Virus record (IMG/VR): IMGVR_UViG_3300047323_000138 | Span: 1 to 64,000 of that record | Strand: one strand, 5' to 3' | Length of the DNA: 64,000 nt | Source: a virus | Shown here: one piece after another, positions 33,280 through 35,642 of the stretch | Layout: the number at the start of each line of letters is the position of its first letter | Position numbering within the stretch: the stretch's first letter is position 1 | Notes under the pieces: generated by a model | Seen by the model: only the letters and a program-made list of their open reading frames with translations | The model's database searches: none | Told to the model about the DNA's origin: nothing | Position numbers and translations under genes: made by a program

Positions 33280-33326
33280 ACGCGACCTAATAAGGTTTCG
33301 ACTTATCACAAAGTCTCATCAGGCGT
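33280..33326 (-). ncRNA. Type I hammerhead ribozyme
   Basis: acgc CUGAUGA gacuu-ugugau-aaguc GAAA ccu-uauu-agg UC gcgu: complete core, three stems, GUC cleavage triplet. Confidence 0.92.
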
Positions 33327-33335
33327 GTTAAATAA

Positions 33336-33450
33336 GTGCGAATGCTGGATACCTACTTGCAGAGCGGTGGTATCGTACGCTCGTAAATTAATGCTGGTGT
33401 TGTTTATCTCGTCTTTATCACGAGGTGGCAGAATCCAGCAACTGCGCATT
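33336..33450 (-). ncRNA. Multi-branch structured RNA domain 5' of the hammerhead
   Basis: ugcuggau/auccagca closing stem enclosing cucgu/acgag and gagcg/cgcuc hairpins. Confidence 0.6.
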
Positions 33451-33452
33451 CT

Positions 33453-33713
33453 TTAACAAGTGATCTGAACAGGACTTTGAAAGTCTGTCAACTTCCACTG
33501 TTTGAAGTAGTCTGAAGGATACACCCGAGTAGGTATGTCACCAACCCCTACGAATACTTCTTTGTTACGATCAGGTGTACGCACTGGTGTGACCTTATCA
33601 AACACAAGCTTCAAATGATCTTTAATCATCAACCATTGGTTTTCAGAGATGGTGTCTGTGTCAGATAGTTCTACGAAGCCTTGAAGCCAGTATGTGAAGC
33701 TTTCGGAATTCAT
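33453..33713 (-). CDS. Conserved phage hypothetical protein
   Basis: F.YWLQGFVEL...QW.MIKDHL.LVF.KVTP motif. Confidence 0.7.
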   Translation of the reverse strand: MNSESFTYWLQGFVELSDTDTISENQWLMIKDHLKLVFDKVTPVRTPDRNKEVFVGVGDIPTRVYPSDYFKQWKLTDFQSPVQITC

Positions 33714-33715
33714 GG

Positions 33716-33850
33716 TTATTCTTCCATGCCAATTTCTTCACAACCAATATCAAGATATTCAAACAAAGCTTCTGGAGATTCAAAGTGAATAAGATTTTCA
33801 CCACGATCTGTTGCTTCCATTACTTCTAGAGTTTTAGCACTTGGAATCAT
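33716..33850 (-). CDS. 44-aa peptide resembling the C-terminal toxin-binding region of DinJ/RelB antitoxins (absent from ORF track)
   Basis: MIPSAKTLEVMEATDRGENLIHFESPEALFEYLDIGCEEIGMEE; AAGGA RBS; own promoter. Confidence 0.65.
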   Translation of the reverse strand: MIPSAKTLEVMEATDRGENLIHFESPEALFEYLDIGCEEIGMEE

Positions 33851-33873
33851 TTATATTTTCCTTTCGATATAAG

Positions 33874-33902
33874 AGTATAACATCTTTTAGATGAATTGTA
33901 CA
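33874..33902 (-). promoter_or_regulatory. sigma70-like promoter with dyad in spacer
   Basis: TGTACA-17 bp-TATACT with extended TG; catct-aaa-agatg dyad. Confidence 0.55.
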
Positions 33903-33909
33903 CAATTAT

Positions 33910-34116
33910 TTAGTAGTCAATATGTTTTGAGCCGTCAGACTCAGATTCATAATAAGCTTCAGTAATATCTTCAAATTGATATCGTTTAGGTTCATATTCA
34001 TCAATATTGTAAACTACGTTTAGGCAAGCGGAGCAGAAATCCTCTTCTTGACCATTTTCTTGCAACATTTTAAAGTTCCTCCACGTCAGAGGGACATTAC
34101 AGCAACGACACCTCAT
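33910..34116 (-). CDS. Small zinc-ribbon protein with acidic tail
   Basis: CRCC...FCSAC. Confidence 0.65.
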   Translation of the reverse strand: MRCRCCNVPLTWRNFKMLQENGQEEDFCSACLNVVYNIDEYEPKRYQFEDITEAYYESESDGSKHIDY

Positions 34117-35516: not shown

Positions 35517-35642
35517 CTATTTTGTCATATCTTGAATCTCCTTTAGTTTGAACATGCATTTCAGAATAAAAGATTGTCGACTCATCTCACCACGATTCTC
35601 ATCAATCCAAGAAAGTAGTGGTCGAGGGATAATCAAGCTCAT
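35517..35642 (-). CDS. 41-aa CopG/Arc-like ribbon-helix-helix protein (absent from ORF track)
   Basis: MSLIIPRPLLSWIDENRGEMSRQSFILKCMFKLKEIQDMTK; AGGAGA RBS; beta-strand, L..ID, MSR..FI pattern. Confidence 0.65.
   Translation of the reverse strand: MSLIIPRPLLSWIDENRGEMSRQSFILKCMFKLKEIQDMTK

Follow-up and report, generated by a model that had tools for sequence, protein, structure and literature searches.

Why would a phage encode the toxin-binding end of a bacterial antitoxin by itself, with neither the DNA-binding head of that antitoxin nor a toxin gene beside it? This question is raised by a reading frame for a 44-aa peptide on the minus strand (positions 33716-33850, stop codon included) of a stretch of DNA from an uncultured soil phage, IMG/VR record IMGVR_UViG_3300047323_000138. 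The stretch analyzed, referred to here as the window, comprises the first 64 kb (positions 1 to 64,000) of this virus record, which is complete at 87,351 bp and carries direct terminal repeats. Distant kin of the record are ~98-kb Pseudomonas phiPsa374-like phages and Vibrio myophages, as judged by a tail protein with 55% identity across half of its length. Window DNA was found by sequencing run in rhizosphere metagenomes, with partial matches in soil and root samples, and there was no RNA run among the runs listed as containing the stretch. The phage host is probably a rhizosphere Pseudomonas-like bacterium. Neither megablast of the region nor tblastn of the 44-aa peptide returned a significant match among 50,697 isolated phages, and scans of the whole window with Rfam (gathering thresholds) and for tRNAs yielded no matches.

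The 44-aa gene and its phage relatives

The initial annotation had described an unannotated 44-aa reading frame with a ribosome binding site, and both were recovered. The encoded peptide (M-I-P-S-A-K-T-L...G-M-E-E) is specified by a single-copy gene, and a Shine-Dalgarno-like GAAAGGA (33859-33865, minus strand) is located 8 nt 5' of the ATG. Residues 2-35 form a core that resembles the antitoxin DinJ, and residues 36-44 form an acidic tail that is absent from DinJ. Upstream, a 68-aa zinc-ribbon gene (CxxC...CxxC; 33910-34116, minus strand) is conserved and bounds the slot of the peptide gene on its left. The gap between these two genes measures only 59 nt and contains a promoter-like site (TGTACA-17-TATACT with a TG before the -10; 33902-33874, minus strand), which had been regarded as the gene's own promoter. 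The site exists, but it agrees at 9/12 positions, and sites of this quality are not commoner in the region than in shuffled sequences, i.e. they occur at chance level. In two related phage sequences (L007 and L013), a perfect TTGACA-16-TATAAT (12/12) is found ~38 nt 5' of the ATG, at the position equivalent to the promoter-like site of the window.

Downstream, the gene for an 86-aa protein, termed p86 (33453-33713, minus strand), begins with an ATG 2 nt after the peptide stop codon. The peptide gene had also been placed at the head of a ribozyme operon, which was not upheld. The hammerhead type III match in question (33296-33341, minus strand) scored 22.7 bits against an Rfam gathering score of 48.5 (E 0.064), p86 intervenes, and the equivalent cassettes of relatives precede other elements, as in L007, where a tRNA gene (63.4 bits; L007:4369-4442, plus strand) follows the peptide gene in place of p86. 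A link between the peptide gene and a ribozyme operon is not established. The sub-threshold hammerhead does retain an intact CUGAUGAG...CGAAA core.

Homologous peptides were sought in two large protein collections. A phmmer search of 1.8 billion representatives returned one true homologue of 47 aa with 66% identity, while two further matches (P0002 and P0003) were rejected as repeat-protein artefacts. A word-indexed search of 5.8 billion proteins identified nine clusters of 44-51 aa, some of them on ~85-kb phage contigs, and the gene is also carried by the IMG/VR relative L007 (86,180 bp). The family thus comprises 11 variants of 44-51 aa, all of which start with M-[IK]-P-[NS] and share 20 invariant columns. 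Because ten variants besides that of the window keep the frame, the start and these 20 columns, the reading frame is confirmed as a real gene and not a chance frame. After the core, the phage peptides continue with an acidic tail of 9-12 residues (G-C-[ED]-E-I..., ending in E-E, W-I, G-F or G-L) that has no counterpart in DinJ.

One sequence with a different architecture was observed on a short metagenome contig (L014:492-1169, plus strand). It encodes a 225-aa protein in which a P-loop domain similar to AAA_28 and deoxynucleoside kinases is followed by a C-terminal 34-residue DinJ tail (I-P-N-T-R-T-L...L-D-I), and a tail-fibre-like gene is its neighbor.

Homology to the C-terminus of DinJ

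In direct scans, the peptide matched nothing in Pfam and NCBIfam (E 10), PHROGs (E 1) or PADLOC (E 0.01), and phmmer against PDB sequences at E 10 was equally empty. The Pfam gathering threshold for PF04221 was not reached and no match to this family appeared even at E 10, and BLASTP of the peptide against E. coli DinJ alone produced no alignment. With Pfam, NCBIfam and PDB scans empty, the short fragment escapes routine annotation, and its link to DinJ becomes visible only through a closer full-length DinJ or through profiles. The link to PF04221 was missed by direct hmmscan but recovered by both of these routes. A profile built from two phage peptides and compared with longer proteins (5.8e9 sequences) gave a single match (E 1.4e-8), P0004, an 86-aa member of PF04221 that bears the name DNA-damage-inducible protein J. 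With 67.5 bits to PF04221 over profile positions 1-81, P0004 represents a complete DinJ; its best PDB matches are the E. coli DinJ-YafQ structures 4ML0 and 4Q2U, and BLASTP aligned peptide residues 3-34 with P0004 residues 54-85 at 25/32 identical positions. Independently of this, a profile of the 11 phage peptides was compared by hhalign with a profile of four distant DinJs, which gave a probability of 97% (E 8.7e-11) and equated peptide residues 2-35 with E. coli DinJ residues 53-86; the DinJ profile had E. coli DinJ as its master and further contained two metagenomic sequences and one from a Dehalococcoidia MAG. The alignment to E. coli DinJ extends to the exact C-terminus of that protein. 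In the ESM Atlas, scores of only 0.84-0.85 were obtained, and one 40-aa cluster with PF04221 on 17% of its members was treated as a lead and not as evidence.

The tail had initially been assigned to a combined DinJ/RelB type. The DinJ part of this assignment holds, while the RelB part does not: E. coli RelB (4FXE) matches P0004 over the ribbon-helix-helix (RHH) head only, whereas DinJ (4ML0, 4Q2U) matches it through to the end, and the tail is therefore DinJ-type. On the strength of these comparisons, the resemblance of the peptide to the DinJ tail is judged to be true homology. In tblastn of full-length P0004 against the 50,697 isolated phages, every match took in the N-terminal head, most matches came from records of temperate phages, and no match was limited to the tail.

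The peptide starts at the 'PN' motif of DinJ, at about DinJ residue 52-53. The C-terminal toxin-binding segment is present and the N-terminal RHH domain, responsible for DNA binding and dimerization, is absent, as had been proposed; only 59 nt separate the gene from the preceding one. A 41-aa reading frame at 35517-35642 was considered as a split-off DinJ head and rejected, as it is unrelated to that head. Since the dimerization and DNA-binding head is missing, the peptide cannot act as a repressor. DinJ inhibits YafQ via its C-terminal domain, and the complex is lost upon deletion of DinJ residues 77-86 (PMC12301738). The equivalent of this YafQ-binding end in the peptide, residues 27-35, contains the family-invariant residues F30, Y32, L33 and I35.

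Proposed function and candidate target

The absence of a cognate toxin gene near the peptide gene, noted at the outset, was found to extend to the complete 87,351-bp genome, which contains no match to PF15738 (YafQ), PF05016 (ParE/RelE) or PF04221 (RelB), nor could a Pseudomonas-type YafQ be found in it. The peptide is thus phage-encoded and antitoxin-derived, and its toxin partner is absent from the phage. As only the toxin-binding tail of DinJ is copied, the peptide is most likely an antidote to a host toxin-antitoxin system. In the reading that we favor, with a probability of roughly 60%, it is a minimal decoy antitoxin that would keep a YafQ-like toxin of the host silent after host DinJ decays. 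The peptide would correspond to the 34-residue segment with which DinJ wraps YafQ-family toxins, extended by the acidic tail of 9-12 residues, and would be expressed early and in free form under its own host-type promoter. Upon infection, labile host DinJ would no longer be replenished, and the peptide would cover the surface to which DinJ binds on the YafQ-like toxin thus set free, so that the toxin would stay inactive. A toxin-antitoxin system that presumably restricts the phage would thereby be unable to abort the infection. Both the neutralization of a YafQ-like toxin and the anti-defense benefit are predictions from sequence.

The closest full-length DinJs, found in Pseudomonas gingeri, in a Pseudomonadaceae MAG and on soil-type metagenome contigs, point to a candidate target. 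Each of them adjoins a YafQ-family gene (PF15738, 45.7 bits) whose best PDB relatives are E. coli YafQ and HP0892. At nine Pseudomonas-type loci (L002:3001-3577, L003-L005 and L008-L012), dinJ and the YafQ-family gene are convergent, lie ~45 nt apart and share no operon. In E. coli YafQ, His50, His63 and His87 are catalytic (PMC4652777). The YafQ-like partners do not have these histidines (H50 is replaced by N/G/S, H63 by K/R/L and H87 by V/T), and the proteins of the convergent loci carry conserved cysteines in place of the catalytic histidines. The loss of these residues and the convergent arrangement with dinJ make the activity of the partners uncertain. Only 3/401 genomes sampled from the genus of P. 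gingeri carry a DinJ tail that matches the profile of the phage peptides, neither the DinJ nor the YafQ-like protein matches a defense model in PADLOC, and the literature search returned no report of DinJ-YafQ restricting phages. A type II antitoxin is, as a rule, specific to its own toxin, and an identity of 64-78% to known tails is therefore no guarantee that the peptide binds the toxins belonging to those tails.

Co-folding of the peptide (11-row alignment) with the YafQ-like protein of P. gingeri (7-row alignment) resulted in ipSAE values of 0.55, 0.63 and 0.56, a median of 0.56 that compares with 0.15 for the best of three controls. The pLDDT of the partner did not fall below 71, and 94% or more of the contacts were shared between runs. 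In the calibration of the tool, the mark was reached by 58/80 solved complexes and 2/110 mismatched pairs, but at values of 0.60 or below by only 7/80 solved complexes and by both mismatches, and the tool graded the result as weak support. As solved DinJ-YafQ complexes exist (4Q2U, 4ML0), the score may reflect likeness to these structures rather than binding.

Taken further, the DinJ tail could be a portable toxin-grip module, used as a free peptide with an acidic tail and as a fusion to an AAA_28/deoxynucleoside kinase-like domain (L014), and directed against an undescribed convergent, histidine-less DinJ/YafQ-like defense pair of soil pseudomonads. This extension is offered tentatively and is more likely wrong than right.

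A different target for the peptide is unlikely, but of the rival explanations it is the one that survives best. The peptide could act as a decoy for the Lon or ClpXP proteases that spares host antitoxins from degradation, modulate the DinJ-YafQ repressor, or counteract a toxin of competing prophages, plasmids or satellites. Homology proves descent from the DinJ tail and nothing beyond it, the candidate YafQ-like toxins are atypical, and the acidic tail, with its W-I, G-F or G-L end in most members, is a conserved and phage-specific addition to which DinJ has no equivalent. Antitoxins are, moreover, substrates of proteases (PMC4803016). The conserved positions of the peptide nevertheless coincide with the YafQ-binding end of DinJ, the co-fold with the YafQ-like protein exceeds its controls, if weakly, and no particular other partner is indicated. 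Neutralization of a YafQ-like toxin remains the preferred reading.

Selection on the gene and exchange of the cassette

Whether the gene is maintained was approached by comparison with five Pseudomonas-type dinJ genes. Synonymous divergence (dS) to these genes is saturated, dN amounts to 0.24-0.35 and the proteins are 64-78% identical, which argues that residues have been held by selection. The GC content of the peptide gene is 35%, compared with 50-57% for the corresponding dinJ parts, and together with the saturated dS this indicates that the capture is old. Between the window and L007, the peptide gene shows a dN/dS of ~0.55, which denotes moderate constraint at low power, as it was calculated over 44 codons from one phage pair. 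In the same comparison (33716-34116 versus L007:3638-4144), dS is 0.35 for the cassette and 2.2 for the adjacent zinc-ribbon gene, which suggests that the cassette was exchanged later than its surroundings. The sequence of L013 combines a coding sequence identical to that of the window with a leader as in L007. Promoter and gene thus appear to form a cassette that is under mosaic exchange between phages.

The occupancy of the slot varies as well. In L017, whose p86 is 95% identical to that of the window, the peptide gene is missing and the zinc-ribbon gene is directly followed by p86. In L020, the slot before p86 holds a short reading frame (L020:1331-1504, plus strand) that ends in the acidic-tail motif (...I-T-N-E-E-E-W-V), does not contain the DinJ core and was apparently left behind by a deletion. 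Judged by these genomes, the peptide gene is an optional accessory cassette. A CapR homology domain (PF21817, 53.6 bits) occurs in a 326-aa protein that L007 encodes two genes 5' of the peptide gene (L007:2580-3560, plus strand), and a different 221-aa gene occupies this position in the window.

These data also bear on the explanation that the gene is a decaying, functionless remnant of a captured dinJ. The gene is dispensable, being absent from L017 and reduced to a remnant in L020, and a dN/dS of ~0.55 to L007 would be in line with decay. All 11 variants, however, retain the frame and begin at the same point, the domain boundary, nothing of the RHH part is left in the only 59 nt upstream, and the gene has its own ribosome binding site and, in relatives, a perfect promoter. 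A protein that stays 64-78% identical to bacterial DinJ while dS is saturated and the GC content has fully adapted to the phage is hard to reconcile with loss of function, and decay is regarded as highly improbable.

The downstream gene p86

The p86 family is much larger than that of the peptide, with 308 clusters in phage contigs compared with nine. In an AlphaFold model of p86 based on 50 sequences, two helices at the N-terminus are predicted with confidence and the C-terminal half is disordered, and hhalign revealed no similarity to the YafQ profile (probability 0.7%). The peptide is absent from 80/80 IMG/VR loci that contain p86, and L007 possesses the peptide without p86. Hence p86 is neither a toxin of the RelE/YafQ fold nor an obligate partner of the peptide, and its candidacy as a toxin was rejected on the YafQ-profile result, the modeled fold and the 0/80 loci with the peptide. 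The possibility that the peptide belongs to a phage-borne toxin-antitoxin pair, whose toxin would be the translationally coupled p86 or the product of some other phage gene, is suggested by the 2-nt spacing and by a gene order, antitoxin before toxin, that is typical of type II modules. It is the least probable explanation, given that p86 lacks a beta-sheet nuclease fold in its model, that the two families differ in size, that none of the 80 p86 loci contains the peptide, and that no BECR-family match was found in the genome.

Members of this large, phage-only family share a conserved N-terminal two-helix motif (W-L-Q-G-F...I-K-D-H-L-K-L-V-F). The C-terminal half of p86 is swapped in L013 (L013:1859-2119), even though the flanking DNA is 95-100% identical.

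Comparison with known antitoxins and phage inhibitors

The nearest known relatives of the peptide are DinJ of the E. coli DinJ-YafQ system (4Q2U, 4ML0; PF04221) and the DinJs of the P. gingeri type. Peptide residues 2-35 are homologous to DinJ residues 53-86, including the last nine residues, which are needed for complex formation. Unlike DinJ, the peptide lacks the RHH head, and with it any means to dimerize, bind an operator or regulate its own expression. Its gene belongs to a phage and is not flanked by a toxin gene, and the product is extended by an acidic tail that DinJ does not have and scores too low for Pfam to detect. Orphaned type II antitoxins are known to be hard to recognize (PMC11825919). 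If the proposed function is correct, routine annotation would miss such genes, as Pfam, NCBIfam and PHROGs were all empty for this one, phages that infect soil pseudomonads would face a genuine barrier in the form of a YafQ-like system, and a ready-made minimal inhibitor peptide for the family of YafQ-like toxins would be at hand.

Type II antitoxin genes without toxins have been noted in a phage before. The lytic cyanophage S-CREM1 carries genes annotated as orphan YefM, TacA and MazE antitoxins, for which the same hypothesis, binding of the phage antitoxin to free host toxin, was put forward from sequence alone (PMC9964418). These antitoxins are presumably encoded by whole genes, whereas the peptide described here keeps the toxin-binding tail only. 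Against DarTG, the use of orphan antitoxins by phages is established; examples are the NADAR enzymes of T4-like phages (PMC11825919), an antitoxin mimic of ICP1 (bioRxiv 10.1101/2023.12.14.571748) and a DarG2-like protein of a chimallivirus (PMC13309987). They resemble the peptide in being phage-borne, antitoxin-derived and toxin-free, and they are thought or shown to neutralize a toxin-antitoxin defense of the host. They differ in that they are full-domain enzymes that undo the modification introduced by the toxin, which is the logic of type IV systems, while the peptide is a 44-aa fragment of a type II antitoxin that is predicted to act by binding.

A parallel to the predicted mode of action is offered by Dmd of phage T4. 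When the antitoxin of the host has decayed, this small protein blocks an RNase toxin of the host by binding to it directly. Dmd is non-homologous to host antitoxins, whereas the peptide is a recognizable copy of the binding segment of the antitoxin itself. The toxins RnlA and LsoA are the ones to which Dmd serves as antitoxin, according to work cited within PMC11825919. A literature search, which was not exhaustive, returned no described case of a phage with a type II antitoxin fragment, whether stand-alone, solo or truncated, or with the toxin-binding tail as the only part retained. Phage proteins that disarm toxin-antitoxin defenses are mainly enzymatic antitoxins of the DarG and NADAR types or non-homologous inhibitors such as Dmd. 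Next to these, a 44-residue fragment would represent the simplest possible route, in which a phage retains the toxin-binding tail of the antitoxin alone.
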